The notes: generated by a model from the sequence alone, not told the origin. Counted from the first letter of the stretch, positions 3,813 through 44,213 are shown. The stretch: DNA of 64,000 nt from a bacterium (GCA_029561455.1 JAKQIY010000076.1:81838-145837); one strand, 5' to 3'. Numbers and translations: made by a program.

Positions 3813-3820
3813 ATAATCTT

Positions 3821-8473: not shown

Positions 8474-8575
8474 TTGATAACTTTCCCTAGCAAGTCTTCA
8501 TGTTATTTTATTAAATTTATTAAAGTTATACTAAAAAGTCAAGAATTTTCTGAAAACAGAAAATTTGTTACTATT

Positions 8576-9391: not shown

Positions 9392-9407
9392 ATTTTCCTC
9401 CTGTTCT

Positions 9408-10628: not shown

Positions 10629-10657
10629 ATTTCAATCAGGAACAAATTTAATTATGA

Positions 10658-12451: not shown

Positions 12452-12478
12452 AAATTACAAGATCGCAGGCCTCTTTAT

Positions 12479-13773: not shown

Positions 13774-13786
13774 ATCATATTCCCGG

Positions 13787-23066: not shown

Positions 23067-25241
23067 ATGACTTTATTAAATATTACTCAATTCCATATCG
23101 CAGTTAACAATATAATCTTGTTCCTGCTGTTCTCGCTGGGTGGATTAATATTTTCCTTGTACATATATCGCTATACGCTCCCTCCTGTCTCCAAAACGCT
23201 TAAAAGGATCTTAACCGGACTGCGAATTACTGTGTTGTTTTTATTACTGACCGTTTTGTTTGAATTATCAGTTAACCTGGTCAGAACAATAAAAGAAGAG
23301 GCCCAGTTAGCAGTTGCTATCGATACATCGGCAAGTATGGCGGTTATTGACAATGCCGGGGATCGTGCTGCACTTTTAAAAGAGGTATTACAAAACCCGG
23401 TGTTCGCAAAGCTGCAAAACAACTTTATTACTAATTATTATACCTTTGCCAATACAACACAAAAAATTACAGCCGATGACTCTATAACCTTTGTTGGCGA
23501 TGCTACCAATATAACATCCAGTTTGCAAGTTATTAAAAAAGAGTTGTCGGAAAAAAACCTTTCCGCTATTATTTTGATTTCCGATGGAAATTATAACCGC
23601 GGTGGTAATCCGGTACGATTAGCCGAACAAACGGGAGTTCCGGTCTACACAATTGGTCTGGGTTCCGATACACCGCTAAGGGATCTTGCCATTGCAGAAG
23701 TGGAAAACAATCCTTTCTGTTATCTTGAAGAATCGACTCCGCTAACCGTTACCATTCGCAACAATGGTTATAACCAAATCAGTACACCGGTAACCTTGTC
23801 TGTTAATGATGAGTTGGTAGATTCCCAAATTCTCACTTTACCAGCATCGCCATCAGAAACGATTATAACTTATAATTTTACACCAAAAACAACCGGATTG
23901 AACAGGCTGGTAATTAATTTGCCGGCGCAAAAAAGTGAACTGCTGGTACAAAATAACAGTCGTACGTTTTATATCGATGTTTTAAAATCCCGACTCTATA
24001 TACAAATTTATGCCGGTAGTATAACCCCTGATATTTCGTTTATCAGGAACAGTATAGAGTCATCAAAGCGTTATACTGTAGGTCTCAGGGTTGAAAAAAA
24101 CGGTGGAGGTTTTTATACTAAAGATAATAATAACTTGCAAGATACAGATATTTTGATTTTTATTGACTTTCCATCAGCCGCCACAGACCAGGCTACTTTA
24201 AATCAATTAAAAAGTACTCTGGAAAATAATAATACTCCGCTGTGGGTTATAACCGGGAAAAATACCAATTTAGCAAAATTAGCAAATTTTGAAAACTGGC
24301 TGCCCTTTAAATGTAATGCCAGTTACATAAATGAAATTCAAATATTAGCAGAACCGGATCAAGCCGGTAAAAGTCATCCTATTATGCAACCGGCGGTACC
24401 GGTTACATCCTGGTTTACAAACTGGACGAAACTACCGCCTATTTTTTCAGTACATCAAATAAAAGAATTATGGCCGCAAACCCAAACCCTGGTTTATGCC
24501 AAAACCGTTCGCGGCCAGCAGAGTACAAAACCCACCAATCCGCTTCTGGTGATCAGAAACAATAATAGCCATAAATCCGCTGCGTTTCTGGGTTATGGAT
24601 TATGGCGCTGGGAATTATTGATGTTGGGAACAGGCGACGAAAGTGATATTTACAATACCCTTGTAAATAATATGTTGCGTTGGTTAGAAACAAAACGGGA
24701 GACAAGCGCTTGGCAAATAAAAACCGATAAATCGCACTATCATTTTGGGGAACCAATTAAAATATCGGTCGATATAACTGATAAGACATTGGCAACGCCG
24801 GAAACGAGCGAATTAACCCTGCTGCTCGCTTATGAACAGGTGAGCGAATCAGTTACTGTAACCCGTTCAAGCGATAGGAGTTATACAACAGTATTATACC
24901 TGGATAAAGCCGGCGATTATACACTCTCCCTTAACAGGGATATAATGCCGCAAATTGCATCCGCTCCGGATGAAGCTTTATTTAGCGTTGGTGAGTACAG
25001 TATAGAATTGAACAATACGCAATTACAAAAATCTATATTACAGGATCTGGCAAACAATACAGGCGGCAGATATATAACACCGGACTCGACAGCGATGCTG
25101 GAATCGCTCGTCCATGGAGTAACAAAATCAAGTGTGCAAACCATAAACAAAGAAATATGGAATAATAAATATCTGCTTTTTTTATTGATCATTTTCTTAT
25201 CTCTGGAATGGTTTTTGCGAAAGAAAAAAGGAATGCTGTAA
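23067..25241 (+). CDS. vWA-domain membrane protein (BatA/two-anchor-like; N-terminal double TM plus C-terminal TM anchor)
   Basis: Two N-terminal TM helices, vWA MIDAS-like stretch (AVAIDTSASM...ILISDGNYN), long beta-rich middle, C-terminal TM LLFLLIIFLSLEWFLRKKK. Confidence 0.55.
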   Translation: MTLLNITQFHIAVNNIILFLLFSLGGLIFSLYIYRYTLPPVSKTLKRILTGLRITVLFLLLTVLFELSVNLVRTIKEEAQLAVAIDTSASMAVIDNAGDRAALLKEVLQNPVFAKLQNNFITNYYTFANTTQKITADDSITFVGDATNITSSLQVIKKELSEKNLSAIILISDGNYNRGGNPVRLAEQTGVPVYTIGLGSDTPLRDLAIAEVENNPFCYLEESTPLTVTIRNNGYNQISTPVTLSVNDELVDSQILTLPASPSETIITYNFTPKTTGLNRLVINLPAQKSELLVQNNSRTFYIDVLKSRLYIQIYAGSITPDISFIRNSIESSKRYTVGLRVEKNGGGFYTKDNNNLQDTDILIFIDFPSAATDQATLNQLKSTLENNNTPLWVITGKNTNLAKLANFENWLPFKCNASYINEIQILAEPDQAGKSHPIMQPAVPVTSWFTNWTKLPPIFSVHQIKELWPQTQTLVYAKTVRGQQSTKPTNPLLVIRNNNSHKSAAFLGYGLWRWELLMLGTGDESDIYNTLVNNMLRWLETKRETSAWQIKTDKSHYHFGEPIKISVDITDKTLATPETSELTLLLAYEQVSESVTVTRSSDRSYTTVLYLDKAGDYTLSLNRDIMPQIASAPDEALFSVGEYSIELNNTQLQKSILQDLANNTGGRYITPDSTAMLESLVHGVTKSSVQTINKEIWNNKYLLFLLIIFLSLEWFLRKKKGML

Positions 25242-25405
25242 AATAACGCCGGTATTGCGGAAAAGAAAATATACCGGGGTTATGTTAAAATAAATGTTGC
25301 AATTTATCTTTACTTGTTTTAAATTTAAAACTAAGATGTATAGTGTGTATTGACGATATTGCAATTGCAGATGTTAGTGTAGCAGCAAATTCCGGTTATC
25401 AGAAA

Positions 25406-26443
25406 ATGAAAGGATATACTTTGAAAAAGACAACGTTATTGTTGATAGTAATATTTTTTATTATCCCCTTGCGTTCCTTTTCCCAGGTATCATATTATGG
25501 TGGTAAAGGGCTTTTACGAATAATTGAAGCGGAAACAATTCATCCCGGAGTTCTGGCCATTAATGCGGTTTACAATGGTTACGCTGCAGGCGATAATTAT
25601 GATTTCAGTGAAGATCATTCCATGTATCTGGGCCTCACAGTCGGATTAACCGAGCAATTTGAGATTTTATCACAATTAGTGCCATACCAGGATGATCAAA
25701 AACATACCTGGGGGCCGATTGGCGATACCAAATTAGGCGTAAAATATCATATCCCCAACAACAGCACCTATGTAAAATTTGGAGTTGTTGGTTTTATCAG
25801 TATTCCAACAGCAGTCAATCATAATGTCCCTTTTGAATCATACAGCGATGATGCGATGGGCTGGGGTTTAATGAGTTTAACATCATTTGATCTGAAAAAC
25901 CTCTCATCCTCCATTCCGTTAAAATTAACTATAAATATTGGTTATCGCGATCATAACTGGGGCGATCAGTTCTTTGCAGCCCGTAAAGATCAGTTAATTG
26001 GTGGTATAGGTTTTAAATTTCCGATTCGCTCAAATTTACTTTATTCAGAAGTGAGCGGAGAATATTTTATCAATAACTCCGAAAATGTCAGTCCCAGCCA
26101 AAACTTTATCCGCTTCACCCAGGGGTATCGTTTTGTCGGCCCCTGGCACCTCATTTGTGACCTGGCTGCCGATATTGAATTAGGCGGTTATAAACCCGAT
26201 GCTAAAGACTTGTTCAAAGATTCCTATATTAAAGATTATGCCGATTGGAAAATAATATTTGGTGTTTCATACAGAACCACTCTATTTGCCGGCAAGACCA
26301 AGTCGGAAAAGTTACAGGAAGAAAAAGCCAGGTCTGAGCAACAGGAACTTGATACCATACAGGATAAAAGAGAAAAGGTAATTAAGGATCTTGAAGAATT
26401 AAGGAAACAACTGGAACAGGAAAAAAAGCCGAACGCTGAATAA
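25406..26443 (+). CDS. Outer-membrane beta-barrel-like protein with C-terminal coiled-coil tail, hypothetical
   Basis: Start moved to ATG 25406 (MKGYTLKKTTLLLIVIFFIIPLRSFSQ signal peptide); amphipathic beta-strand pattern; last 60 aa are a charged coiled coil (KLQEEKARSEQQELDTIQDKREKVIKDLEELRKQLEQEKK). Confidence 0.45.
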   Translation: MKGYTLKKTTLLLIVIFFIIPLRSFSQVSYYGGKGLLRIIEAETIHPGVLAINAVYNGYAAGDNYDFSEDHSMYLGLTVGLTEQFEILSQLVPYQDDQKHTWGPIGDTKLGVKYHIPNNSTYVKFGVVGFISIPTAVNHNVPFESYSDDAMGWGLMSLTSFDLKNLSSSIPLKLTINIGYRDHNWGDQFFAARKDQLIGGIGFKFPIRSNLLYSEVSGEYFINNSENVSPSQNFIRFTQGYRFVGPWHLICDLAADIELGGYKPDAKDLFKDSYIKDYADWKIIFGVSYRTTLFAGKTKSEKLQEEKARSEQQELDTIQDKREKVIKDLEELRKQLEQEKKPNAE

Positions 26444-26575
26444 TAATTAAGAATTTTTTACGTATTTTTTATGTTTTGTAGTATAATTTATTATTAACAA
26501 AAATTTAAAAAGGTATTTTCAGGTTTATCAGAAAAATGCCGCTAGTCTGTGATCACAAAGTTATTCCGATAAAAC

Positions 26576-27982
26576 ATGAATTTTGTAATACAAAAATTTT
26601 TTATTTTCATAAATATTCAATATAAATTCCGGGCTGTTCTCCTGGTCCTATGTTTTATATTTTCAATTAATACTTTTGCCTTTACCCCAACAGATTCCCC
26701 GGTAAAGCCAATGAGCCCGCGGCAATATGAGGATTTAGAAAAAGCCTCTGCTAAATTACATGCGGAAGCGCAAAAGTTATTTGAAAGCCAAAACTATTGG
26801 GAAAGCGCCCGCAATCTCATCATTTTACTGGATTTTAACAATAATTACTCCAGGATAGACGAGGTGCTTTTCACCCTGGGTGATTGTCTTTACGAAATTG
26901 GTCTTTATGAAGGTTCCAAAAAAATATTCAAATACCTGGTAAAGAAATTTATCTCCAGTGATCAACTACCCCGTGCATTACTCGGGTTACAACGTATTGA
27001 ATATGATAGTGAGAATTTGATTAAATGTATCGATTTTTATAAAGTAATTACCAGAGGAAGCCCCTCACAGGAAATTCTGGATTGTTCACGCTATTATGCA
27101 GGTCTCAGTTTTTATAAACTGAATGATTATAATAATGCCATAGATATATTGTCGCAAATCAGTAAATCAAATTCTTATTACGCTTTTGGGCAATATACCT
27201 GTGGTTTATCTTATCTGCGATTGAAAAAGGTGCGCAAAGCGGTAGATACCTTAAATGGTATTTTGCGTATTGCTATAGTAAACGATGAAATCCGCAGCAT
27301 TGTAGATGAAACCCATTTAACACTGGGTTATATTTATTATGAACTTGGCTATTATGAACATTCATGGCATCAGTTTAGTGCTGTATCTTCAAAACATACC
27401 AACTATCGCGATGCTTTATTATCGGCTGGATGGGCGGCTACCAAACTTCAGGATTATGAACGGGCCATTAAACCGTTAACACAACTGGTCAGCTTCCAAC
27501 AGGAAGACGAGAAAACCCAGGAAGGATTCTTTTTACTAGGCCAATGTTATTTAAAATTGGGGCTATATGATGATGCCCTAAAAATATATGAATTTTTGGT
27601 CAATATATTACCGAACCGAGAACTTGTGCCGGTAATAATTCAACAAGTTGGCAGCAGTATAGCCCAGGAAGAAAAAAAGATCGAAAAGATCAAAATGGAT
27701 TTGCTGGTTCTCGAAACTAAATTATTAAACCTGATTCAGCTATCACCCGATATGGATACCCCCTTATACCTGCAACAGGAAAAAGAGGGCATAACCCTGA
27801 CCAGAAATAACTTGTTAACTCAGATTCAAACCGAACGTAAATCATTCGAACAGTTCTCCATGCAAATCAAGGATATGAAAGAAAAAATCCAGATTAAAAA
27901 AGAACGTCAGGATTGGAGAGCATTTGCTGAATATGGTAAATCACGAGCCATGTTTCTCAAGAGAACAGAATCACAAAACTAA
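26576..27982 (+). CDS. TPR-repeat protein with N-terminal anchor and C-terminal coiled coil (GltE/GltD-like candidate)
   Basis: Hydrophobic N-terminus, multiple TPR units (YYELGYYEHSWHQF...), C-terminal coiled coil. Confidence 0.55.
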   Translation: MNFVIQKFFIFINIQYKFRAVLLVLCFIFSINTFAFTPTDSPVKPMSPRQYEDLEKASAKLHAEAQKLFESQNYWESARNLIILLDFNNNYSRIDEVLFTLGDCLYEIGLYEGSKKIFKYLVKKFISSDQLPRALLGLQRIEYDSENLIKCIDFYKVITRGSPSQEILDCSRYYAGLSFYKLNDYNNAIDILSQISKSNSYYAFGQYTCGLSYLRLKKVRKAVDTLNGILRIAIVNDEIRSIVDETHLTLGYIYYELGYYEHSWHQFSAVSSKHTNYRDALLSAGWAATKLQDYERAIKPLTQLVSFQQEDEKTQEGFFLLGQCYLKLGLYDDALKIYEFLVNILPNRELVPVIIQQVGSSIAQEEKKIEKIKMDLLVLETKLLNLIQLSPDMDTPLYLQQEKEGITLTRNNLLTQIQTERKSFEQFSMQIKDMKEKIQIKKERQDWRAFAEYGKSRAMFLKRTESQN

Positions 27983-30918
27983 TGTTGCTGATGAAAAACT
28001 GCCTTTTTAATAAAATTTTTTTATTTATAATCCTGTTTCTTTCCACAACCCCCTTTTACCTGCAAACCGGTTTTGCGCAGGAGAGCGCTTTTGTCTCCGC
28101 AATTTTAAAAGAAACCGGCGAAGACCTGGTAAAGCTGAGTGAAATAATCAGAGAACACGAAACCCTGCTGCAAAAATATCCCAAGGGGCCTTTTGCTTCT
28201 ACCATCATGTTCCAGTTAGCCGAGTTGGAAGCGCAAAAAAGTAATATAATCTATCAGCAGGAAATGCGGCTTTATGAAGAAGATTTAAAGAATTTCGACG
28301 CGGGCAAACTTGCCGTTGAACCCGAAATGCCCAAACTGAATATGGATAGAACTATACAATATTGCAATGTCTTACTCAAAGAGTATCCAAATTCAAAATT
28401 TCAGGACAAGATATTATACAAGCTGGGTATTTCATATTTTCAGGAAGGGGATAAATTAAGAGCCAAAGACTATTTTGAAAGTATTGTAGCCAATTACCCT
28501 GAATCTACAGTTTCCCTGGAATCTCATTTCCGTATCGGCGAATATTATTTTGATAAACGTGATCTTGATAACGCCATATTTCATTATAGCAAGTTACTGG
28601 TTGATTGGAATAATCCGTATTTCGATATGTCGTTATATAAACTGGGGTGGTCTTATTATAACCAGAATAATTATAGCAAAGCCATCAGCAGCTTTATTTA
28701 TTTAATTGAAGATATCTCCCTGGTAGAAAAAGCCAAAACTCAGGTGCTGAGTAAAAGTAAGACCGATTTACGGCTGGAATCGATACATTATATTGCGAGT
28801 TGTTTTACGGAATTTGGCGGCCCTAAAGGCGCCAAAGAGTTCCTGCTCAAATATAAAGATAAAGATTATACATTGCCAATTCTGCTGAAAATGAGCGAAC
28901 TGTATCAAAAAAGAAATTATTATGCTGAAGCTATAGAAACCTATAAAGCAATTTTGGAATTATATCCTTATTATTCTGAAGCCCCTGAAATTTATCATAA
29001 TATCATTACAAATTACGAAGCTGGTGAAGATTATTCCGGCGCAAATAAAACCCGTGAAGAATTGGTAGATAAACTGGGGCCGGGCAGCAACTGGATCAGT
29101 CAAAATCCCGATACCCAGGTTCAAAATACCGGGCTTGCAGCAACCCGTGAAACTCTTGTCTATCTTGGCGGATTTTTCCAGGCAGAAGCGCAAACCAACG
29201 GCAATAAAGAAACCTATCTAAAAGCAATAGCCAAATACCTGGACTATTTAAAGAAATTCCCGGATGATGAAAATGTGCCGAAGATTAATTATTACCTGGC
29301 GGAATGTTATTACAATATTCAGGGCTTTACCCAGGCCGCCGATTGTTATTACAATGTTGTAATTAAAGACTTTCTTGACAAGACCGGTTTCCGCGAAGAA
29401 GCAGCCTATAACCGTATTCTGTGCTACTATGAATTAATGGATGCTCCCGGCGCGACAGATGAAAAAATGACCAGCATTGCCAATTTTTTGGGTACCAACG
29501 ATACCCTGGTCATTGTGAACATCAATAAACCAGCCGAGATCAACATATTACAGGCCAGCAATGACTTTTTACTCACTTTTCCCAAAAGTAAGTGGCTGGA
29601 CCAGGTCATGATGAAATATGGTGAAATTCTACACAGTCTCAAATACTTTTTACCGGCAATAGAAGTTTATAAAAAAGTTTTACAATTAGGTAATACCCGA
29701 CCATACTATCTCACTGCGTCCATGAGTGCGGGGCAATGTTATTTTGACGCTGAATTATTCTATGAAGCGGAAATCTGGTTTAATAATATTGCACGAAATT
29801 ATCCCGATTCAACACGCTATACCAAAAGAGCGCAAATACTTGCTTCTTCAGCCAATTTTAAAATTGCCGAACAGCTAAGTGATGCGGGCAAAAACCAGGA
29901 AGCGGCTAAATTGCTAAGCACAGTTGCAGACAAAGCAGTTGAACCGGGTATTCAGGAGCGCGCAATTTTTGAAGCTGCTGCGCAATATCAAAAAGCCGGG
30001 CAACCAGCTCAGGCGGCAACGATCCTGGAAAGATTGATCACTCTGCAACCGTCATCAAAGCTGGCAGACGAAGCACTAAAAAATGCCGCTGAAATCAGGG
30101 AGAATAATAAAGAATCGGCATCGGCTGCTCACAACTACCTGCTTTTGGCCGATAACTATCCCTCCTCCAAATATACCAAACGTTCAATTATAAATGCCGC
30201 AGTATGTTATGAAAACCTGCAAGATTGGTTTTCCGCCAAGGCAACCTTTAACAAGTTTATCACAACATTTCCCGATTCCGGCGATGACTATATCGAATGT
30301 ATGTACAAAGTTGGCGAAATGAATTACAAGCTGAATGATTATTATAATGCTGAAAATTCATTTAAAAATACCATATTGGCGTACGACAGGATGGTTAATA
30401 ACGGACAGGAACTGGATACTTATTTCATAGCCCAGGCGCAGTTTATGCTTGGAGAGATATATTTTATTTCCTATAAACAAATAAATCTAATTCCCCCGCT
30501 GGAAACGAATTTAAAGCTCAAAGTTGCCAGTTTTCAAAAGGTTCTTAAAGCATATAAAGATGCCCTGCTCTACCAGGTAGCCGATTGGAGTACTGCTGCT
30601 ACATTTAAAATTGGCATGACTTTTGAAGAGTTATTTAGAGCATTCATAGAATCACCCCCTCCTGCGGAGTTGACCGGTGATCAGTTAACTGTTTATGTTA
30701 CCGCTTTGAAGGAAAAAGCCGAACCCTATAAACAACAGGCTTTAGAGACATACAAACTCAATGTAGAACAAGCGGCAACTAACAATATTTCAAATAACTG
30801 GATCGATGAAAGCAAAAAAAGGATAGAAGCCCTTTCCGGTGAAGCGGAAATTAATAACGATATATTGAACAGCGCCGACCAGGAAAGTGTAACGCAGGGA
30901 ATTAATGGAAAATCTTGA
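27982..30918 (+). CDS. Large TPR-repeat protein (978 aa), periplasmic
   Basis: Signal peptide/anchor; more than 15 TPR-like repeats throughout; ATGA start/stop overlap with the preceding TPR gene. Confidence 0.6.
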   Translation: MLLMKNCLFNKIFLFIILFLSTTPFYLQTGFAQESAFVSAILKETGEDLVKLSEIIREHETLLQKYPKGPFASTIMFQLAELEAQKSNIIYQQEMRLYEEDLKNFDAGKLAVEPEMPKLNMDRTIQYCNVLLKEYPNSKFQDKILYKLGISYFQEGDKLRAKDYFESIVANYPESTVSLESHFRIGEYYFDKRDLDNAIFHYSKLLVDWNNPYFDMSLYKLGWSYYNQNNYSKAISSFIYLIEDISLVEKAKTQVLSKSKTDLRLESIHYIASCFTEFGGPKGAKEFLLKYKDKDYTLPILLKMSELYQKRNYYAEAIETYKAILELYPYYSEAPEIYHNIITNYEAGEDYSGANKTREELVDKLGPGSNWISQNPDTQVQNTGLAATRETLVYLGGFFQAEAQTNGNKETYLKAIAKYLDYLKKFPDDENVPKINYYLAECYYNIQGFTQAADCYYNVVIKDFLDKTGFREEAAYNRILCYYELMDAPGATDEKMTSIANFLGTNDTLVIVNINKPAEINILQASNDFLLTFPKSKWLDQVMMKYGEILHSLKYFLPAIEVYKKVLQLGNTRPYYLTASMSAGQCYFDAELFYEAEIWFNNIARNYPDSTRYTKRAQILASSANFKIAEQLSDAGKNQEAAKLLSTVADKAVEPGIQERAIFEAAAQYQKAGQPAQAATILERLITLQPSSKLADEALKNAAEIRENNKESASAAHNYLLLADNYPSSKYTKRSIINAAVCYENLQDWFSAKATFNKFITTFPDSGDDYIECMYKVGEMNYKLNDYYNAENSFKNTILAYDRMVNNGQELDTYFIAQAQFMLGEIYFISYKQINLIPPLETNLKLKVASFQKVLKAYKDALLYQVADWSTAATFKIGMTFEELFRAFIESPPPAELTGDQLTVYVTALKEKAEPYKQQALETYKLNVEQAATNNISNNWIDESKKRIEALSGEAEINNDILNSADQESVTQGINGKS

Positions 30919-30929
30919 GGTAATACAAA

Positions 30930-31313
30930 ATGGTAATTAAAAATTTCAAATATGTTATTATGATAGCTGTTTATATAATGCTATCGATTAATGTGTCACT
31001 CAATGCGCAAACACAGGAAAATAATTTAATTGACGGCCAAACTGCACTGAACACTCCGGCAATTGCCAATGATTCTTTAACCATTGATAGCGCCAACATA
31101 AAAATGTTCATTGATAAAATTGAGGTTAATGTCCAGTTGGAAAAACCACAAGCAATGTTTATCCTGCCTGGTTCAACACCCGATATAGATGATATTCAAA
31201 TCGAACATTCATTTTTCAACGAAATTTTCCGACCAGTCGAAAAACGGGGAAGAATTCAATCAAGCTTAACAACAGAGCCTGCCATAGATCGTAAAGACTA
31301 TATTCCCTGGTAA
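30930..31313 (+). CDS. Small secreted hypothetical protein
   Basis: 127 aa with signal peptide (VIMIAVYIMLSINVSLNAQ); 12 nt after the giant TPR gene. Confidence 0.35.
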   Translation: MVIKNFKYVIMIAVYIMLSINVSLNAQTQENNLIDGQTALNTPAIANDSLTIDSANIKMFIDKIEVNVQLEKPQAMFILPGSTPDIDDIQIEHSFFNEIFRPVEKRGRIQSSLTTEPAIDRKDYIPW

Positions 31314-31383
31314 GCCTGAAACTAAAATATTGTATATTTTTTGATCTTAACTTTTTTAACAACAACTGATTAAGGAGGTATCC

Positions 31384-32001
31384 TTGGGTAGCATTATAAG
31401 TTTTTTTGTCAAGGGTGGAACGGTTATGTATCCAATTCTGCTGGCGCTCATATTTGGTATTGTGGTGATAATTGAAAGAGTAATTTTTATACTATTTAAA
31501 AACCGTATAGATTCAGCATTGTTCGTAAACAAAATTGCCGAATTGATTAAAAGCGGTAATATCAACAAAGCAATTGAATATTGCAATATATCCGATGCGG
31601 CGCTGCCAAATATCACCAAAGCCGGATTACAAGAACTCCATTCATCACCGGCAAATGTACAAAACGCCCTGGAATTAGCCGCAATGGTTGAAATACCCAA
31701 ACTGGAAAAAAGAATAAATTACCTGGCGATGATTGCCAACGTAGCAACACTGTTGGGACTGCTCGGTACGATTTTTGGTCTAATCAGTTCATTCGCCGCT
31801 GTTGCCCATGCTGAAGCGGCTGAAAAAGCCACTTTGTTAACCGCCGGTATATCAATAGCTATGAACACAACCGCGTTTGGGTTGGTAGTCGCTATCCCCT
31901 GCCTGATTGGTTATACCTATCTTACGGAAAAAACCAATGAAATTATTGATGAAATAAACGAAAACGTAGCTCGTCTTTACCGGATAATGACTTCGAGGTA
32001 A
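31384..32001 (+). CDS. MotA/TolQ/ExbB proton-channel family protein
   Basis: TTG start 6 nt after AAGGAGG; three TM helices; conserved ExbB/TolQ stretch TLLGLLGTIFGLISSFAAVA...GISIAMNTTAFGLVVAIP. Confidence 0.85.
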   Translation: MGSIISFFVKGGTVMYPILLALIFGIVVIIERVIFILFKNRIDSALFVNKIAELIKSGNINKAIEYCNISDAALPNITKAGLQELHSSPANVQNALELAAMVEIPKLEKRINYLAMIANVATLLGLLGTIFGLISSFAAVAHAEAAEKATLLTAGISIAMNTTAFGLVVAIPCLIGYTYLTEKTNEIIDEINENVARLYRIMTSR

Positions 32002-32004
32002 TGA

Positions 32005-32472
32005 ATGAATCTAAAAGAATCAATGCGGCGCAGGATGAAAGGTCATGCTGAAGATGTTGAATTAAATCTCACTTCAGTTATGAACATCTTTCTGATTCTT
32101 ATTCCTTTTTTATTATTGACTGCCGTTTTCGTTCGTATATCTGTACTTGAGCTCTCTTTGCCAAGCCTCGATTCCGGCAGCCGGGCAGCGCAGGTCAAGC
32201 AACAAAAAACGGCGATTATAAATATTCTTATTATCGATGGCAAGGGTTTTGAACTAAAAAGTCCCGAAATGAAATTTCCTCTAGTATCAAAGAAAGATGC
32301 CAGTTACGATTGGGACAGGTTGGCAATACAATTAAAAGAAATTAAAACTAAATATCCGGATTCGGAAGATATGATCATCTCCCCGGTTGATTCAATCAAA
32401 TACCAAATAATTATCAGTGTTATGGATAAATGCCGGGAATCCGGATTCCCCAATATTTCTATTTCAGGTTAA
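32005..32472 (+). CDS. ExbD/TolR-family biopolymer transport protein (paralogue 1)
   Basis: Single N-terminal TM (LTSVMNIFLILIPFLLL) plus periplasmic ExbD/TolR domain. Confidence 0.8.
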   Translation: MNLKESMRRRMKGHAEDVELNLTSVMNIFLILIPFLLLTAVFVRISVLELSLPSLDSGSRAAQVKQQKTAIINILIIDGKGFELKSPEMKFPLVSKKDASYDWDRLAIQLKEIKTKYPDSEDMIISPVDSIKYQIIISVMDKCRESGFPNISISG

Positions 32473-32484
32473 GAAAGTTAAAAT

Positions 32485-33000
32485 ATGAATATTGACGATA
32501 AAACCCATTTATTAAATTTAGCAAAAAATACCAAACACAGAAAACGTGGTACCGCCAGTTTAAAACTGACCTCCATGATAGACATGTTCACAATTTTATT
32601 GGTATTTTTATTGCACAGGTATAGCGCCGAAGGTCAGATCATGACCCTGACCAAAGATCTGAGTCTTCCGGAATCGACTTCGCAATTGCAGCCCAAGGTT
32701 ACCTCAATTATTTCTATTACCCGGGAATGGGTATTAGTAGATGGTAGACCGATTGAACGGATTGAAAATATTCTAGCGGAAGATAAATTGATTATTGCAC
32801 CGTTGCATACGGAATTGACCAAAATTAAAAGTATTACCCAGGGTATTAGTACAATTTCCGATCAGATGGGCGGCTTTAAAGGAAACATTACAATACAGGG
32901 TAATGAAGATATAACATTTAATTTATTAAAAAAGGTAATGCTTACTTGCGGAACTACCGGATATAATAATATGTTGCTGGCAGTTGCGCAAATCGAATAA
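32485..33000 (+). CDS. ExbD/TolR-family biopolymer transport protein (paralogue 2)
   Basis: SLKLTSMIDMFTILLVFLL TM plus ExbD/TolR periplasmic domain; second copy in tandem. Confidence 0.8.
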   Translation: MNIDDKTHLLNLAKNTKHRKRGTASLKLTSMIDMFTILLVFLLHRYSAEGQIMTLTKDLSLPESTSQLQPKVTSIISITREWVLVDGRPIERIENILAEDKLIIAPLHTELTKIKSITQGISTISDQMGGFKGNITIQGNEDITFNLLKKVMLTCGTTGYNNMLLAVAQIE

Positions 33001-33050
33001 TCCGATAATTAACAATGACGATATTTAAATAATTATAGAAATATATATTA

Positions 33051-34442
33051 ATGGCACATACGCGAAAACATTCAATACTGGCAACGAAAATTGTTCAGGG
33101 TAACAAGGAAATCGAACTGCAAATCAAACCGAACAACAAGTTGACCATTGGTCGTAGTCCTGATAATGATATTGTTATTTACAGCGATGCATACCCTAAA
33201 AAGCATACTCTTATTGAATGTAAAAAAGATACATGTGTTTTAAACATTACCCCGAACATGAGCGGCGCAATTGAATATAAAAATTCAAAACTTGATTTTA
33301 ACGATTTATTTCTGCACAATTTGCTGCCTCGAAAAGGGGAATTTTACAGTCTTGCTTTTGGTCATGGCAGGACCGGCGCAATAAAGATTGCCGATACAAT
33401 AGTATACTTTAATTATGACGGCGCCGGCTTGCAGCCAATAAAAGATATGCCGGGTTATACCTGGAAGCAATCCTTTTCTAAAACTTTTTCCAAAGACCTG
33501 TTGTTCAAATCGCTTTTAACGATCTTTTTCTGTCTGGAGATTTTCCTGGCTATAAAACTAAAGGGTTACCAGGTTCCCGATATTGAACCACCGGATATGG
33601 ATAAAATTCCGCAGCGCTTTGCAAAATTTATTATTAACAAGCCGACGCCCCCTCCTGAATTGGAATTAGCGACCTCATCAGGCGATGGTGATGGTTCCTC
33701 GGAAGAAGAACAGGGCGAGAAAAAAGAAAATGAACCTAAAGCTCAAAAATCAACCGGTGGCTCAGGTGGAGATCAAGGTAATAAACCGGTAGTTGCCCAG
33801 GGCTTATTAGGCCTTATAGGCGGCGCCGGAAGTTCAGATAATGCCAGCGCCACAGCAGACTTTTTAATTGAACAGGGCCTAGTCAAGGAACTGGATGAAT
33901 TGATCGGCAGCCAAAAATTGAATAATACCCGAGCTAACGGCAGAAGAGGCGACGGTTCCGGCTCCGGTTCCGGAACGGGCAGCGGTTCCGGTAGTGGCGA
34001 TGGCTTGGACGATCTTGTAGCATTAGGTCTGTCCGGCATTGATGACTTGCTTCCCGCCGGTGGTGGTGTGGAAAAAGTAGCGTTGCAGAAAAAAGGGAAT
34101 GTTAATATCGAACAACCCAAACAAATGCGCGGTTCGCAGGCAGCGCAGGCTCAACGCACACCCCAATCCGTTATGTCGATCATCAACTCGCAGGAGGGGC
34201 GTATTATGTATACCTATAATAAATACCTGCGCGAAGATCCGAACCTGCGTGGTAAAATCAATATCGATATTACAATTGAAGCGGACGGGTCAGTCAGTAA
34301 TGTTGCCGTTCTGGATACGGATATTCCGGTACAAGAGTTTATCCAGGATATAATCAGTATTTTACGACGCTTGAAATTTCCGGCAATTACCGAAGGGGCA
34401 ATTCAGGTCAACCTCCCCTTTGTGTTTAACCGGGTGAATTAA
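33051..34442 (+). CDS. FHA-like / TM / Gly-Ser linker / TonB C-terminal-like domain protein (GltG/AgmV-like)
   Basis: N-terminal FHA-like motif (KLTIGRSPDNDIVIYSD...KKHTLIE), one TM, Pro-rich and acidic segment, (GSGSGTGSGSGSG) low-complexity linker, C-terminal about 90 aa TonB_C-like (GKINIDITIEADGSVSNVAVL...AITEGAIQVNLPFVF). Confidence 0.6.
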   Translation: MAHTRKHSILATKIVQGNKEIELQIKPNNKLTIGRSPDNDIVIYSDAYPKKHTLIECKKDTCVLNITPNMSGAIEYKNSKLDFNDLFLHNLLPRKGEFYSLAFGHGRTGAIKIADTIVYFNYDGAGLQPIKDMPGYTWKQSFSKTFSKDLLFKSLLTIFFCLEIFLAIKLKGYQVPDIEPPDMDKIPQRFAKFIINKPTPPPELELATSSGDGDGSSEEEQGEKKENEPKAQKSTGGSGGDQGNKPVVAQGLLGLIGGAGSSDNASATADFLIEQGLVKELDELIGSQKLNNTRANGRRGDGSGSGSGTGSGSGSGDGLDDLVALGLSGIDDLLPAGGGVEKVALQKKGNVNIEQPKQMRGSQAAQAQRTPQSVMSIINSQEGRIMYTYNKYLREDPNLRGKINIDITIEADGSVSNVAVLDTDIPVQEFIQDIISILRRLKFPAITEGAIQVNLPFVFNRVN

Positions 34443-34450
34443 ATTAAAAA

Positions 34451-34478
34451 ACCCTGCTTCCGGCAGGGTTTTTTTTGG
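34451..34478. terminator. Bidirectional rho-independent terminator between convergent genes
   Basis: AAAAAA-CCCTGC-TTCCG-GCAGGG-TTTTTTTT. Confidence 0.8.
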
Positions 34479-34491
34479 TTACTTTATTTTC

Positions 34492-35925
34492 TTAAAGATT
34501 ACCATCACCAGGTTTAGTGATGTTTTTATAATCCAGCGGGTTTATTTGATAAATACGAATTTTTTGCTGTAAATATTGACGTTTGATTTCCAGTAATTTC
34601 GCCGCTTTGCTTACATTCCCGGCACTCAGTTTGAGCGCCTGATTGATCATATTCCATTCGAACTCGCGGATGACCAGGTCTTTGGCATTACTAAAAGAGA
34701 CCTCGCCCGGAGAAAGAGATATCCGGGATTGAGGTGATTTAGTTAGCTCCACCGGCAGTAAATCGGTAGTTATAAGCGGTTTATCAGCCAGTACCACACA
34801 TTGTTCCAGAACATGCATAAATTGGCGGACATTGCCGGGCCATTCATAATCCAGCAATTGTTGCATGGCGGCAGATTCAAACCCCTGAATCATTTTGGTA
34901 TGTTTTTCGGCATATAAATGCAGGAAATGGTTTGACAGGATAGGAATATCCGTTTTACGTTCGCGTAGGGAAGGTAATTGAATTTCCACAACTTTGATGC
35001 GGTAATACAGATCCTCCCGGAATCTTCCCTCCTCTATCTCTTTACGTAAATTTTTATTGGTGGCGCTGATCAACCTGACATCGGTTTGTAATACTTTTTT
35101 ACCTCCAAGCCGGGTAAAGGATTTTTCTTCTAGTATCCTTAATATTTTAGCCTGGGTATCGATACTCATATCGGCAATTTCATCCAGAAAAAGAGTGCCG
35201 CCATTGGCAATTTCAAATTTCCCCTGGCGTTGATTGATCGCCCCGGTATAGGCGCCCTTTTCGTGACCGAACAACTCGCTTTCGACCAGGTCTTTGGGAA
35301 TAGCTGCGCAATTCATGGTAATAAACGGGCCGGCAGTCCGGGCGCTGAATGAATGGATCGTTTTGGCGGCCAGTTCTTTGCCGGTGCCGCTTTCGCCGGT
35401 TAGTAATACGGTTATATCGGTCGGCGCTACTTTTTCAATCAATTTAATAACTTCAAGAATTTTAGGGCTTTCACCGATAATAGAGCCCCGATTTTGTCCG
35501 GCCAGTTGCTGGCGTAATAATACATTTTCGCGCCCCAGGGTGATCTTTTCCAGGGCTTTGTTCACTACCAGGCGTAGTTCTTCAATTTCAAAAGGTTTGG
35601 ACAAGTAATCATAAGCTCCGGCTTTCATGGCTTCAACGGCTATTTTTTCAGAACCGAAAGCAGTAAGAACAATGATAAGCGGTAATAGCCCGGTTTCACG
35701 CTCCTGCTTTTGTACCTGGCCGATAAACTCCAGGCCGTTCATTTCCGGCATGTTAATATCGCACAACACTACATCGGGCTTGAATTCAACCAGTTTTTCC
35801 AGGGCAATCCGGCCGTTTTCTGCCTCTTCCAAATGATAGCGTGACTTGCCGAGCGCTTTGCGCATTCCATAACGGGCGGCGTCTTCATCATCAACTATTA
35901 ATATTCGGGACTTTTCAGTATTCAT
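34492..35925 (-). CDS. Sigma-54-dependent two-component response regulator (NtrC family)
   Basis: REC domain (ILIVDDE...D), AAA+ sigma-54 activation domain (GESGTGKE Walker A, GAYTGA variant of GAFTGA, ESELFGHEKGAYTGA), C-terminal Fis-type HTH. Confidence 0.9.
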   Translation of the reverse strand: MNTEKSRILIVDDEDAARYGMRKALGKSRYHLEEAENGRIALEKLVEFKPDVVLCDINMPEMNGLEFIGQVQKQERETGLLPLIIVLTAFGSEKIAVEAMKAGAYDYLSKPFEIEELRLVVNKALEKITLGRENVLLRQQLAGQNRGSIIGESPKILEVIKLIEKVAPTDITVLLTGESGTGKELAAKTIHSFSARTAGPFITMNCAAIPKDLVESELFGHEKGAYTGAINQRQGKFEIANGGTLFLDEIADMSIDTQAKILRILEEKSFTRLGGKKVLQTDVRLISATNKNLRKEIEEGRFREDLYYRIKVVEIQLPSLRERKTDIPILSNHFLHLYAEKHTKMIQGFESAAMQQLLDYEWPGNVRQFMHVLEQCVVLADKPLITTDLLPVELTKSPQSRISLSPGEVSFSNAKDLVIREFEWNMINQALKLSAGNVSKAAKLLEIKRQYLQQKIRIYQINPLDYKNITKPGDGNL

Positions 35926-35971
35926 TTTGATCTCTGACTTTGCAATCTCACTTGTGAAAAATTTAAAACCA

Positions 35972-38116
35972 TCACTTTTTATTCACGGGGAAATAGACTA
36001 AAAATTCAGCGCCAGCATTAACATCGCTTTTAACATCAATAAAGCCACCCAGTTCCTCAACATTTTGTTTTACTATAGCAAGGCCGAGTCCTGTGCCTTT
36101 GGTGCGGGTGGTGAAAAATGGCTCGAATATTTGTTTAATATTCTCTTTGGTTATACCGGGTCCGTTATCTTTGACCTTTAATATAAACCAGTTTTTTACC
36201 TGTACAAGATCAACCCGGCGGGAGGCTTTTTTTATTTTATCAAGTCCTGCTTGTTGTTCAAGAGTGATGACAATTTCCCCCTTTGAACCAACCGACTGTA
36301 TAGCATTTAAAACCAGGTTGTAAATTATTTCACGAAGAGATTGTTTTTTAGCCCAGAAAACCATATTTATCTCCGGGGTCTGAAAAACAATACTTGTTTG
36401 ATTGCGGTTGGCCTGGTATTTAAGCAGGTCGACAACATCCTGAACAATTTCCGCCAGGGAGACTTCCTCGACATTGGCGGTTGAAGGCCGGGCAAAACTC
36501 AGCAATTTTTCCAAAACCGTATGCAGGCGGTTGATTTCTTCAATTACAATTTGCAGATCTTGCGCCTCATCGCCGTTGGCGTTTTCATGTAAAACCTGAA
36601 CAATACTTTTTATAGAAGACAATGGATTTTTGATTTCATGCGACATGGTCGTTGCCAGTTGCCCCAAAGAGTTTAACTTTTCCGCCTGGTAAACCCGCGC
36701 TTCCAGGTTCAACCGTTCCTGCACCAGCCGGGCATTTTCAATTGCCAGGGCAACCTGGTTGGCAAAGGTTTGCAGCATGTCAATCTCTTCTTCAGAAAAG
36801 GGATTTCCCGATTGTTTGCCGGACAGACAGATCATTCCGGTCATCTTTTTCCGATAAAAAATCGGTACGGCCAGTTCCAGTTTGTTATTCTTGAGCGCAT
36901 TGATAACCAGGTGAGTTTTGATCTGTTGGCGCAAGCGCAGGGCGCGGATCGAGGTAAAGGCATCGATAAGGGAGAAAAAATCTTTTAAATCCTGGTTGCC
37001 GATAGTTTTTAAAATTTCCTGCTTTTTGGCAGTTGACTGAAAAACAACAATGGTCAGCGATTTCACCTTGAAAGCAGATTTAAGGGATTCGCTGATGGTA
37101 TTGAGCAATTTTTCCAGATCGACAATGCCGATGATGTTGTCGGATAGTTCACGTAAAATTTGTTGATAAAAATAGCGATCCTTGAAAAAAATCCGGTCGA
37201 GTCGTTTTTGAAAAGCCTCGCGAAACGGCTGAAAAGCAAACACCAGGGCGACCAGCAGTAATCCTTCAATAAAGGTAGAATTGATCTCAGGGAACAGCTT
37301 TAAATATTCGCCCAGCCGGCGGATACCCAGCAAATAAACGGTCATCAGGGCGCCGTAGATGATGGAATAGATGAGACTTGGTTTGATGACCAGGCGGTAA
37401 AAATTATAGCGGTAAACATAATAACCAAGCACCGCCATGGGTAAGGTTGGCGAAAGCAGCATTAAAAGTCCCAGATAATAGCCAATATAAGAAATTTTAT
37501 AAGTCGGTATTATTAAAATAACAATGATGCCAACGCCGATCAGCGCCAGGGTGATACTCAAATCGCGGTAAAAATGCCGATCGGCTTCGTTCTCATGGGT
37601 TCGGGCCAGGTTTTCGGACAAGATCAGGGAAAAAGTGATAGCGAATAACATCCATAAATAATAGGGAAAACGGATCGCTTCGTCCAATTCGACATAAAGA
37701 GAGCGTATTTTCAGGTTATAATAGATGCCGAAATAGAGAAATACAAATACCGGTAAATAGGTGAACACAATTAACAGGGTATGATGGCGAACTATCCATG
37801 GTCTGAGTTTTCTTTTGGCGCGATGAAAGAACGCCGCCAGGGTGTTCATCATTGCAGAAGGGATGAGCGCCAGGCCCAGATACGAAATAACGATGAGGAT
37901 ATTAGTTTCGAGCAAAACAACTTTGCCAAACAACATGCGGTTTATCAGGGAAAGAAAATTTCCTCCCAGCCATAAAGCACAGGCTACCAGCAAGATCACC
38001 AGCGCATAATCGTCATAATGCTTGGGTTTCTTTTTTAAGGTCAGGCTGAAGATGATCACGGTCAGCGCGGTGCCAAAACCAAACCCCAAAGTGTTGATAA
38101 AAGTATACAAGGCCAT
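35972..38116 (-). CDS. Sensor histidine kinase with N-terminal polytopic membrane sensor and GAF domain
   Basis: About 330 aa multi-TM N-terminus, GAF-like region, HisKA H-box (MSHEIKNPL), HATPase_c N/G1/G2 boxes (NLVLNAIQ...DNGPGI...GTGLGLAIV). Confidence 0.85.
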   Translation of the reverse strand: MALYTFINTLGFGFGTALTVIIFSLTLKKKPKHYDDYALVILLVACALWLGGNFLSLINRMLFGKVVLLETNILIVISYLGLALIPSAMMNTLAAFFHRAKRKLRPWIVRHHTLLIVFTYLPVFVFLYFGIYYNLKIRSLYVELDEAIRFPYYLWMLFAITFSLILSENLARTHENEADRHFYRDLSITLALIGVGIIVILIIPTYKISYIGYYLGLLMLLSPTLPMAVLGYYVYRYNFYRLVIKPSLIYSIIYGALMTVYLLGIRRLGEYLKLFPEINSTFIEGLLLVALVFAFQPFREAFQKRLDRIFFKDRYFYQQILRELSDNIIGIVDLEKLLNTISESLKSAFKVKSLTIVVFQSTAKKQEILKTIGNQDLKDFFSLIDAFTSIRALRLRQQIKTHLVINALKNNKLELAVPIFYRKKMTGMICLSGKQSGNPFSEEEIDMLQTFANQVALAIENARLVQERLNLEARVYQAEKLNSLGQLATTMSHEIKNPLSSIKSIVQVLHENANGDEAQDLQIVIEEINRLHTVLEKLLSFARPSTANVEEVSLAEIVQDVVDLLKYQANRNQTSIVFQTPEINMVFWAKKQSLREIIYNLVLNAIQSVGSKGEIVITLEQQAGLDKIKKASRRVDLVQVKNWFILKVKDNGPGITKENIKQIFEPFFTTRTKGTGLGLAIVKQNVEELGGFIDVKSDVNAGAEFLVYFPVNKK

Positions 38117-38117
38117 A

Positions 38118-39137
38118 TTATTCAGCTAATTTGATATTCAAATATCGTAAAACATTGTCAATTGTATTGTAAACCGTAACAAAACCGGAACCGCTGCAGC
38201 ACAAGCCCACGGCCCGATTGTCTTCTGTTAACAGCAGCGACCCGGAATCGCCGGGATCGGCCATATCATTGGTTATGATTTGATCTTTAAAATATGCGGT
38301 GCGTCCGCCTGAATAACCGACTTCGATTTCGGCATTTATTATTTTAATCACACCGGTTGTACATCCGGTAGTTCGGCCGCTTTTTTTAACCTTCATGCCA
38401 ATTTCGGGTGCGGCAATGCCATTCACCTTGCCCAGGTCTCTGATTTCATCCGTCAGCACACCATCGTCATCAGGCTGGGCTAGCGCGGCATCGACAAAAT
38501 TGACCGGGCGCTTTTTTACCGGTTCCAGGCGGGTTTGCGAACCCAATACGGCAGCAACCAGGTTGAAAGGCAAGGCAACAATTTGCGCTATTTTACATTT
38601 CTCATCATTTTCCAGCCAGGTTGAAGAATTGGTATACTTTAAATTGACAAAACGCTCCAGCCTGGCCACACGATCGTTAGCAGGTTTGCCGCCATCGGCA
38701 GGGGCCGGCTGCAACACCGGGTCGCCGATCAGCGCGTCGTTGCCGTTGGCAAGAATGTGATTGTTGGACAGGAGCATTGGTTTGCCGCTATGCCCATCAT
38801 AAACCACCACCCCCAATGTACCGGCGTGCACAGCATAGTGGCCGATAGAAATGCCTGAATATAACGGCCTTGTCCGGGTACGGGTATCATACGCATTGAT
38901 CTTACCGACCTGCAATACATCTACAGGTATTTTATCAAATTGAGGTGGAATCTTGTCCCTTTTCTTTAATAAACTGAGCGGTAACTTTTCCCTGACCATA
39001 ACAATTAGCGCCAGTTCTTTGGTTGCAAGGCTCTGAGTTTCTTTGTATCCAAGACCAAGCCCCAGCACATTTGCTGCTTTGAGTATTGTGCTGCTTATGG
39101 CTTTTTGCAGCAGCATGATGTCTTCTTTTCTGGCCAC
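38118..39137 (-). CDS. Cytoplasmic trypsin-like (S1-fold) serine protease, putative
   Basis: No signal peptide; His context (LLSNNHILANG), Ser context GDSGS(LL) analogous to GDSGGP; stop abuts the HK start codon (operon with the two-component system). Confidence 0.5.
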   Translation of the reverse strand: MARKEDIMLLQKAISSTILKAANVLGLGLGYKETQSLATKELALIVMVREKLPLSLLKKRDKIPPQFDKIPVDVLQVGKINAYDTRTRTRPLYSGISIGHYAVHAGTLGVVVYDGHSGKPMLLSNNHILANGNDALIGDPVLQPAPADGGKPANDRVARLERFVNLKYTNSSTWLENDEKCKIAQIVALPFNLVAAVLGSQTRLEPVKKRPVNFVDAALAQPDDDGVLTDEIRDLGKVNGIAAPEIGMKVKKSGRTTGCTTGVIKIINAEIEVGYSGGRTAYFKDQIITNDMADPGDSGSLLLTEDNRAVGLCCSGSGFVTVYNTIDNVLRYLNIKLAE

Positions 39138-44128: not shown

Positions 44129-44213
44129 ACCGTACTACCCCTTTAATCAGTTTATTTGCTCTTTAACCAGCTTCTATTTACAATTTAAGTGATTCCTGGA
44201 TATATTACAATAC

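Follow-up and report, generated by a model that had tools for sequence, protein, structure and literature searches.

Which machine is encoded by nine co-directional genes on the plus strand at positions 23067-34442 of a bacterial DNA stretch, and to what kind of organism does it belong? The stretch in question comprises 64,000 nucleotides (GCA_029561455.1 JAKQIY010000076.1:81838-145837) and is referred to as a whole as the window. An earlier note made from its sequence alone had interpreted the cluster as a trans-envelope machine resembling the ancestral Agl/Glt core. The nine open reading frames (ORFs), here designated p1 to p9, were recovered at these positions. Based on the analysis presented here we consider it likely that p2-p9 (25406-34442) form one conserved operon and represent the version of the Agl/Glt "core complex" of candidate division KSB1, an envelope-spanning machine driven by the proton motive force.

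The conserved unit and its components

The conservation of the gene neighbourhood, which the earlier note had named as a check of its interpretation, was examined in the GTDB species genomes using a 33-sequence alignment as query, and the neighbouring genes were mapped by tblastn with the window proteins. The scan revealed 79 loci, which are labelled as KSB1, Calditrichota or Caldithrix or belong to mislabelled "Cytophagia" or "Deferribacteres" metagenome-assembled genomes (MAGs). The order p2-p3-p4-p5-p6-p7-p8-p9 and the spacing of the genes are kept in essentially every locus with sufficient flanks (about 60 GTDB genomes by tblastn), the identities across the syntenic loci ranging down to about 30% for p9 and from 56 to 80% for p6. 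Since synteny of this extent is far beyond chance, p2-p9 are regarded as the conserved unit. In the window the intergenic gaps of p1-p9 range from -1 to 164 nucleotides and do not exceed 70 nucleotides from p3 to p9; the start codon of p4 and the stop codon of p3 have one base in common, and gaps of 3 and 12 nucleotides separate p6 from p7 and p7 from p8, respectively.

The named relatives of p9 and p2 almost all belong to candidate division KSB1, and contigs identical to the window were detected in metagenomes of anaerobic digesters (JGI 3300009780 and 3300025871) and of other sources. Judging from these relatives and the GTDB loci, the host is a KSB1-like organism and not a member of the Fibrobacterota, the group considered in the earlier note. 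A tblastn search of p9 against plasmids gave no match. Loci of Fermentibacteria retrieved in the genome scan were rejected as relatives because they have only the C-terminal domain in common with p9 and lack neighbouring motor or TPR genes.

The last gene of the operon, p9 (33051-34442), encodes a protein of 463 aa composed of an FHA-like domain, one transmembrane (TM) segment, a linker about 150 residues long and, in the periplasm, an AgmX/PglI domain resembling the C-terminal domain (CTD) of TonB. Its best NCBIfam match is the GltG model (gliding_GltG, NF033760; E 6e-22, 77.9 bits), to which residues 26-460 align collinearly (model positions 223-646). The AgmX/PglI C-terminal domain scored above the cut-off of its model (NF033768, myxo_SS_tail; 70.8 versus 40) whereas the tonB_Cterm model failed (TIGR01352; 20.1 versus 27.1); in Pfam the FHA match was marginal and TonB_C was not detected. 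An AlphaFold model built on 52 sequences consists of a confident beta-sandwich (residues 10-122), a TM helix (150-171), a disordered linker rich in Gly, Ser and Asp (200-345) and an alpha/beta domain (349-461). According to Foldseek the sandwich resembles FHA domains and the C-terminal domain those of TonB, FusB and HasB. The protein thus has the GltG architecture that the earlier note had named for it, and its gene directly follows those of the motor. Phosphothreonine binding by p9 seems doubtful since the family consensus does not retain the Arg of the Gly-Arg pair that is canonical for FHA domains.

A profile of the p9 family retrieved 245 proteins below 1e-30 and 4173 below 1e-10 from 1.84 billion representatives. 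A second tier of relatives was found in a Chitinispirillales (Fibrobacterota) genome (L086, GCA_029688955.1), a Myxococcota MAG (L087) and a Pseudomonadota-labelled MAG (L088), and for all ten p9 relatives tested the two top-scoring NCBIfam models are GltG and the AgmX/PglI tail, in either order. The Chitinispirillales locus encodes a 382-aa protein, TPR proteins of 1129 and 974 aa, a 103-aa protein, ExbB, two ExbD proteins and a TonB_C protein of 336 aa, and p4, p5, p6, p7, p8 and p9 each match their positional counterpart. The Pseudomonadota-labelled locus is similarly built from TPR proteins of 1691 and 332 aa, a 241-aa protein, ExbB, two ExbD proteins and an FHA-containing GltG-like protein of 488 aa. 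In the Myxococcota MAG the GltG-like protein is a full-length relative of p9 (GltG model, 176.6 bits), and its gene is directly preceded by one encoding 87 aa, as in the gltF-gltG arrangement.

The motor proposed in the earlier note, a TolQ/ExbB channel with two TolR/ExbD paralogues, was recovered by the profile searches. The 205-aa product of p6 (31384-32001, TTG start) is a proton-channel subunit of the TolQ/ExbB/AglR type (MotA_ExbB, E 9e-30) and is, from residue 1 onwards, 40-51% identical to its homologues in the L086 and L088 clusters. It is followed by two TolR/ExbD paralogues, p7 (32005-32472, 155 aa; ExbD, E 2e-21) and p8 (32485-33000, 171 aa; ExbD, E 2e-11). In E. coli a membrane Asp, D25 of ExbD and D23 of TolR, is essential. 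The corresponding positions were aligned by directly reading the motif N-(L/V)-T-(S/P)-x-x-(D/N) and by the textbook positions, and they differ between the paralogues: p7 has Asn27 (N-L-T-S-V-M-N27) whereas p8 keeps an Asp, D33 (K-L-T-S-M-I-D33). The Asn of p7 is present in 64 of 64 readable orthologues and the Asp of p8 in 66 of 66, and the same pattern, Asn in the first and Asp in the second TolR-like protein, also occurs in the L086 and L088 clusters. A TolQ-like gene followed by two consistently distinct TolR-like genes corresponds to the arrangement of AglR, AglQ and AglS, and the invariant Asn/Asp pair agrees with a heteromeric plug of the kind that has been predicted for AglR5:AglQ:AglS (PMC11761067). 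In Myxococcus the exchange D28N in AglQ paralyses the motor and abolishes its function (PMC3858216).

The two TPR proteins and the outer membrane (OM) barrel with a coiled-coil tail that had been listed for the cluster were also found. p3 (26576-27982, 468 aa, at the position of GltC/GltE) is a secreted protein with matches to TPR families in Pfam and a C-terminal coiled-coil region, and p4 (27982-30918, 978 aa) is a secreted protein with TPR repeats of the YbgF/CpoB type (TPR_6 in Pfam, E 4e-32) and the position and size of GltD. In size, position and TPR content the pair fits a GltD-like protein of about 940-1300 aa with a GltC-like protein upstream, the profile matches being generic. p4 is homologous to both TPR proteins of the Chitinispirillales cluster. 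The 1691-aa protein of L088 aligns with p4 almost end to end (residues 40-948 to 708-1580, E 4e-76) and with p3 upstream of that (residues 43-342 to 218-531), and their fusion in one polypeptide argues for a joint working of p3 and p4. It is this synteny and the homology to cluster proteins of Fibrobacterota and the Pseudomonadota-labelled MAG, rather than the profiles, that suggest the tie of p3 and p4 to GltD and GltE.

The longest ORF of p2 starts at a GTG at 25343, but the ATG at 25406 (25406-26443, 345 aa) is favoured since the homologues are 320-390 aa long. The predicted model of p2 is a 12-stranded OM beta-barrel without a plug domain, followed at its C-terminal end by about 40 residues that form a helix or coiled coil in the periplasm. 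In structure comparisons of the model the nearest folds were FapF, KdgM and NanC, which are gated or oligosaccharide-specific 12-stranded channels.

A ninth gene, p5 (30930-31313), was left out of the earlier component list, which is otherwise complete. It encodes a secreted protein of 127 aa with a signal peptide and is GltF-like by position and sequence. p5 has no match in Pfam or, up to E=10, in NCBIfam; it was found in all related loci whose flanks are long enough, and its family shares the core motif DKIEV.G.LEKPQA.FI.PG...IDDI.I.RSFF.EIFR.VEK. A hidden Markov model (HMM) of the KSB1 p5 family was searched against the 12,379 ORFs of all collected loci up to E=10. Outside its own family it matched only three ORFs, namely the 87-aa protein directly upstream of the Myxococcota GltG-like gene (E 6e-11), the 103-aa protein of the Chitinispirillales cluster (E 5.5e-5) and, marginally, the 241-aa protein of L088 (E 0.013). 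Because all three are located between TPR genes and a motor or GltG gene, p5 is regarded as the homologue in the GltF position. GltF has been listed as limited to Myxococcales and Bdellovibrionales, and the extra gene of the core complex as lacking a myxobacterial homologue (Luciano et al. 2011, PMC3169522). Both may belong to one family. Most p5 homologues end in a (K/R)-D-(Y/V)-I-(P/E/Q)-W tail (31290-31310 in the window). By analogy with the C-terminal helix of GltF docked in GltC, this tail could serve as an anchor to the TPR proteins.

The first gene, p1 (23067-25241, plus strand), encodes a membrane protein of 724 aa that has TM segments at both its N- and its C-terminus and contains a vWA domain, which is only weakly recognised in Pfam (E 0.004); a match to the BatD domain was marginal, too. 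The metal ion-dependent adhesion site (MIDAS) motif D86-x-S88-x-S90 (DxSxS) is invariant in 52 homologues, several of which carry PF00092 or PF07090 (GATase1-like). The earlier description as BatA-like is only loosely true, p1 being a membrane-bound protein with a vWA domain. Furthermore, p1, preceded by tsaD, is found upstream of p2 in only a subset of the related loci. In distant loci housekeeping genes take this place directly upstream of p2, encoding a PAP2 phosphatase, an aldehyde dehydrogenase or a deoxynucleoside kinase, and in a Psychroserpens (Flavobacteriia) genome and a Gemmatimonadota MAG homologues of p1 lie in unrelated contexts without motor or Bat genes. Due to this patchy occurrence and the unrelated contexts we regard p1 as a neighbour and not as a demonstrated component: it lies next to the operon in the same direction but probably does not belong to the conserved machine. 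Its role as an integral "vWA anchor" of the cluster is ruled out in the sense of a conserved component, since p1 is missing from the distant loci. A Bat aerotolerance operon was rejected as well. The combination of BatA/BatB with MoxR, DUF58 and BatC/D/E is not present; neither MoxR nor DUF58 was detected among the scanned genes of the window (a few short ORFs were not scanned), the relatives of p1 lie in unrelated contexts, and the BatC matches of p3 and p4 are weak, generic TPR matches.

Relation to the Agl/Glt core complex and proposed mode of action

The core complex, out of which the machines for gliding and for spore-coat assembly in Myxococcus evolved, has been defined as the Group B genes gltC, gltD, gltE, gltG, aglR, aglQ and aglS together with a further gene (Luciano et al. 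2011, PLoS Genet 7:e1002268, PMC3169522) and was found as a single locus of unknown function in gamma-, beta- and deltaproteobacteria (Geobacter) and in Fibrobacter succinogenes (PMC3169522). In gamma- and betaproteobacteria the order is GltC (550-690 aa), GltD (about 950 aa), GltE (160-260 aa), the extra gene X, AglR, AglQ, AglS and GltG (about 325 aa); in F. succinogenes it is Fisuc_1892 (GltC), 1893 (GltD), 1894 (AglR), 1895 (TolR), 1896 (AglS) and 1897 (GltG) (PMC3169522, Table S3), this locus being identical to FSU_2397-2403. The KSB1 cluster shares with it the order TPR protein, large TPR protein, small gene, TolQ-like gene, two TolR-like genes and GltG-like gene, the location of all genes in one co-directional locus and the AgmX/PglI type of the C-terminal domain of the transducer. 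The published gene order, the profile match of p9 and the collinear homologous clusters agree with the earlier suggestion that a TolQR-type motor with a Glt-like core is present here outside the gliding bacteria. The kind of system has thus been published since 2011, with the Fibrobacter example belonging to the same superphylum, and the KSB1 cluster is a further member of it. Judging by titles and abstracts, no paper linking KSB1 to the core complex was found among those on KSB1 and gliding.

The KSB1 variant differs in several traits from the core complexes known so far. Its host is of the KSB1/Calditrichota type and lies outside the lineages listed in 2011, and with p2 the cluster includes a conserved 12-stranded OM barrel that carries a coiled-coil tail. 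p9 keeps an FHA-like domain for which the gammaproteobacterial and Fibrobacter homologues (about 310-370 aa) and the Chitinispirillales transducer (336 aa) are too short. A separate small GltE-like TPR protein is lacking, and the small protein is GltF-like in a lineage beyond those for which GltF had been listed in 2011. With Agl-Glt and Agl-Nfs of Myxococcus xanthus the cluster shares the motor type of one TolQ-like and two different TolR-like proteins, the transducer layout (FHA, TM segment, long linker, TonB-CTD-like domain), a TPR scaffold, a gene for a small protein before the GltG-like gene and, presumably, the coupling to an OM beta-barrel. Myxococcus GltG has two FHA domains, p9 only one.

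By homology and position p6 would be AglR-like, p7 and p8 AglQ/S-like, p9 GltG-like, p4 GltD-like, p3 GltC/E-like and p5 GltF-like, with p2 presumably taking the place of an OM barrel. Whereas the gene content, the folds, the homologies, the synteny and the Asn/Asp asymmetry are direct results, the stoichiometry, the contacts and the output of the machine are drawn here by analogy with TolQRA and with the structural model of Agl-Glt from 2025. In that model the TM helix of GltG sits on the AglR pentamer and its disordered periplasmic segment wraps around a groove of GltD, on which the TonB-CTD of GltG docks, while GltC binds periplasmic segments of OM barrels and GltF adds a strand to the GltG CTD and puts a helix into GltC (PMC11761067). 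In the KSB1 cluster five copies of p6 would accordingly surround a heterodimer of p7 and p8 (5:1:1 stator) in which only p8 has a protonatable Asp. The proton flow would drive p9, which its TM helix and the membrane-proximal cytoplasmic FHA-like domain would keep at the motor, and the linker of p9 would cross the peptidoglycan so that the AgmX/PglI domain could dock on the TPR scaffold p4, together with p3. p5 would bridge the C-terminal domain of p9 and the TPR proteins, and the barrel p2 would link the TPR scaffold to the OM, with the coiled-coil tails of p2 and p3 as possible contacts. In this scheme the machine would perform mechanical work on the OM or a surface component and not a nutrient import of the TonB type.

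Our best guess, by analogy with Agl-Nfs, is that this work would consist in positioning or moving a surface polymer or adhesive material; Agl-Nfs handles spore-coat polysaccharide that is exported via a Wza-like translocon (PMC3858216). Weak hints in the same direction come from two relatives. In the Chitinispirillales locus (L086:11021-18123) the cluster is followed on the same strand by genes for a Wza-like protein (Poly_export/SLBB), a Wzc-like protein (GNVR and tyrosine-kinase ATPase) and three glycosyltransferases, which possibly reflects a functional link to surface polysaccharide export in this one locus. In F. succinogenes the homologues FSU_2397/2398 (TPR proteins) and FSU_2400-2403 are up-regulated on cellulose, and FSU_2397 and its neighbour FSU_2396, a protein of the OmpA family, have been reported as parts of an OM-vesicle complex that contains cellulases.

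Evidence to the contrary and alternative readings

Several observations weigh against the assignment to the core complex. The GltG score of p9 is to be compared with an equivalog cut-off of 650 bits, so that p9 has to be considered a family relative of GltG and not its orthologue. The GltC match of p3 (E 7e-10, 38 bits, cut-off 450) is generic and no better than those to MamA, PorW and YbgF, and it was the only one obtained when p2-p5 were searched against NCBIfam up to E 10 for GltD, GltE, GltF, GltA, GltB, GltH and GltK. Of the parallel to GltD, GltE and GltG drawn in the earlier note, the GltG part is therefore borne out by the profile searches, whereas p3 and p4 gave only generic TPR matches and none to GltD. 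None of the NCBIfam models resembles p2 in sequence, and the alignment of the p2 family with the 382-aa protein in the p2 position of the Chitinispirillales cluster is collinear but so weak (hhalign probability 10%, E 0.003) that homology is not claimed. All Glt and Agl assignments were scored by NCBIfam profiles and second-tier relatives. Furthermore, in six KSB1-type loci (L062, L063, L066-L068 and L070) p1-p5 are followed by a p9-like gene without TolQ or TolR genes in between. In these loci (for instance L063:1225-10663) tsaD-p1-p2-p3-p4-p5 directly precede a 423-aa p9-like gene whose product is 44% identical to p9 in its C-terminal half and unrelated to it in its N-terminal half. The structural part can consequently be encoded without a motor of its own, and in these genomes the motor must be either encoded elsewhere or dispensable. 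The proposed link to polysaccharide, finally, derives from a single locus and from analogy.

The main alternative is a Tol-Pal-like role in envelope integrity. The cluster would then be the KSB1 equivalent of Tol-Pal, its motor pulling an OM-linked complex via a TolA-like protein for OM attachment and constriction at division, and coordination with the synthesis of the cell wall would fall to the TPR modules resembling CpoB/YbgF. Such a role would agree with the YbgF/CpoB-type stretches of p4, which scored above the cut-off of the tol_pal_ybgF model (116.9 bits over 8-9 stretches, cut-off 90.1), with the higher score of p6 for TolQ than for ExbB (82 versus 52 bits) and with the presence of the cluster in every related species genome sampled, among the housekeeping genes rpsF, ssb, rplI and tsaD. 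Both systems have a TolQ-like channel, a TolA-like transducer that passes the membrane once and has a long linker in the periplasm, and TPR repeats of the same type, and in both the expected output is force on the OM and not transport. However, both scores of p6 lie below the equivalog cut-offs (221 for tolQ), as does the tolR score (29.5 versus 127). The cluster contains neither TolB, Pal nor an OmpA-like peptidoglycan-binding protein, and neither TolA, TolB, Pal, an OmpA-like domain nor a TonB-dependent receptor (Plug/TonB_dep_Rec) was detected among the scanned genes of the window. Two distinct TolR paralogues, forming a heteromeric pair with one Asn subunit, are typical of Agl and not of Tol; the very large TPR proteins are likewise foreign to Tol-Pal, and TolA lacks the AgmX/PglI and cytoplasmic FHA domains of p9. 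To our knowledge the gammaproteobacterial carriers of the core complex also possess a normal Tol-Pal system, which counts against the equivalence of the two. GltG has been explicitly likened to TolA (PMC11761067), yet the core complex as a whole was treated as distinct from Tol/Exb (PMC3169522). Taking these points together, we regard a Tol-Pal-like role as unlikely.

An energised OM channel, in which the C-terminal domain of p9 gates the barrel p2 for import or export, appears less probable still. An operon arrangement ExbB-ExbD-ExbD-TonB occurs in bacteria of the FCB (Fibrobacterota, Chlorobiota and Bacteroidota) group, and the KSB1 cluster shares with ExbB-ExbD-TonB systems a channel of the MotA/ExbB family, tandem genes of the ExbD family and the TonB-CTD fold. 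The nearest folds of p2 would also suit a gated channel, the conserved strand-like motif of p5 could conceivably serve as a TonB-box-like partner, and Raut et al. proposed a TonB-dependent cellodextrin uptake for FSU_2400-2403, a hypothesis derived from proteomic up-regulation only. In contrast to Ton systems, neither a linked 22-stranded receptor containing a plug nor a barrel bearing a TonB box was found among the scanned genes of the window, the p2 model having no plug; the tonB_Cterm match stays below its cut-off, and the linker of p9 is disordered and rich in Gly, Ser and Asp instead of rigid and Pro-rich. The conserved partners of the KSB1 motor are the TPR proteins, the barrel and the GltF-like protein, and the roughly 1,450 residues of conserved TPR scaffold would have no role in simple gating. 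A complete gliding machine comparable to the Agl-Glt focal adhesions of Myxococcus is highly improbable. The core is common to both, the FHA domain of p9 is found in Myxococcus GltG as well, and the vWA protein gene adjoining the operon in some genomes is reminiscent of the vWA adhesin CglB; CglB is, however, a lipoprotein of the OM, whereas TM segments hold p1 in the inner membrane, and p1 is not a conserved companion of the cluster. The core genes have been shown to be insufficient for motility and are also present in bacteria that do not glide (PMC3169522). The NCBIfam matches of the nine cluster proteins include neither a GltJ equivalog (23.6 bits, cut-off 450) nor any other motility component, and the additions GltA/B/H/K/I, CglB and AglZ/MglA were not detected, with no search by name having been made for them. 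The statements of the earlier note that the cluster is neither a Ton nor a Tol-Pal system agree with these results, and a match to a Tol-Pal or Bat operon, which it had named as the outcome contradicting its interpretation, was not found.

Neighbouring genes and significance for the Agl/Glt family

On the 5' side the cluster is preceded by rpsF, ssb, rplI and the genes for a YbbR protein and TsaD, the latter two located upstream of p1. On the 3' side a hairpin with a 12-bp stem and flanking A- and T-runs (AAAAAACCCTGCCGGAAGCAGGGTTTTTT, 34446-34474) lies between p9 and a convergent sigma-54 response-regulator gene and can, as judged from its sequence, act as a terminator for both strands. The convergent genes (34492-39137, minus strand) encode the sigma-54 response regulator, a GAF histidine kinase and a 339-aa protein with weak NAL1-like matches. 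This trio is kept beside the operon in the closer relatives, and in seven loci (L020, L025, L032, L035, L043, L044 and L053) the 339-aa gene adjoins the operon even without the two-component pair. In a JGI contig (3300009780, L001:11442-12875) the regulator, which has 477 aa in the window, was called as two proteins of 370 and 106 aa, probably due to a frameshift or an assembly error. A sigma-54 promoter of the operon was considered and rejected: the motif was not enriched (27 observed versus 34.7 expected) and did not occur in the relevant intergenic regions.

All further features of the window described here are located on the minus strand. At 766-4546, about 20 kb from the operon, a polysaccharide-export pair is encoded by genes for a Wzc-like protein of 772 aa (GNVR and AAA_31) and a Wza-like protein of 236 aa (Poly_export), accompanied by a gene for a STAS-domain protein. 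A second pair of a TPR protein (263 aa) and an OM-barrel protein (OMP_b-brl, 388 aa) is encoded at 6519-13902 beside the cell-wall elongation genes lgt, rodA (FtsW/RodA family), a PBP2-type transpeptidase gene and mreC. A type I restriction-modification locus at 41129-48054 comprises HsdR (999 aa), a Macro-domain protein, HsdS and HsdM. The region 48385-57623 encodes one cargo protein of the type IX secretion system (an S9 peptidase with CBM_4_9 and Por_Secre_tail), a LacI-family regulator and two Fib_succ_major proteins (1071 and 742 aa); the cargo and Fib_succ_major genes fit an organism of the FCB superphylum with a type IX secretion system. The region 58447-63935, which contains a gene for an Lhr-type helicase (1502 aa) preceded by a DUF4258 gene, has a G+C content of 0.55-0.59 compared to about 0.40 elsewhere and may represent foreign DNA or a compositionally atypical gene.

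Since 2011 it has been an open question what the non-motile core of the gliding and sporulation machines of Myxococcus does. As the locus gives no answer on function and belongs to an uncultured host, the gain for this question is incremental; to a specialist the KSB1 cluster will come as no surprise, and it is useful for the comparative reconstruction of the Agl/Glt family. The core is now known as a conserved, apparently single-locus feature of KSB1 and its relatives with a dedicated OM barrel, and both the GltF-like protein, which is shared clearly with a Myxococcota MAG and more weakly with a Fibrobacterota genome, and the Asn/Asp pair are testable in Cellvibrio, Shewanella, Fibrobacter and Myxococcus. 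It is conceivable, though doubtful, that p2-p9 represent a self-contained minimal machine of the Glt type, made up of motor, transducer, GltF-like bridge, TPR shaft and an OM barrel of its own and close to the ancestral state of the Agl/Glt/Nfs family, whose native job in several phyla would be a surface activity driven by the proton motive force, e.g. the transport or deposition of surface polymer or adhesins. In that case GltF-like proteins and the heteromeric Asn/Asp TolR pair would be ancestral features of the core and not myxobacterial additions.

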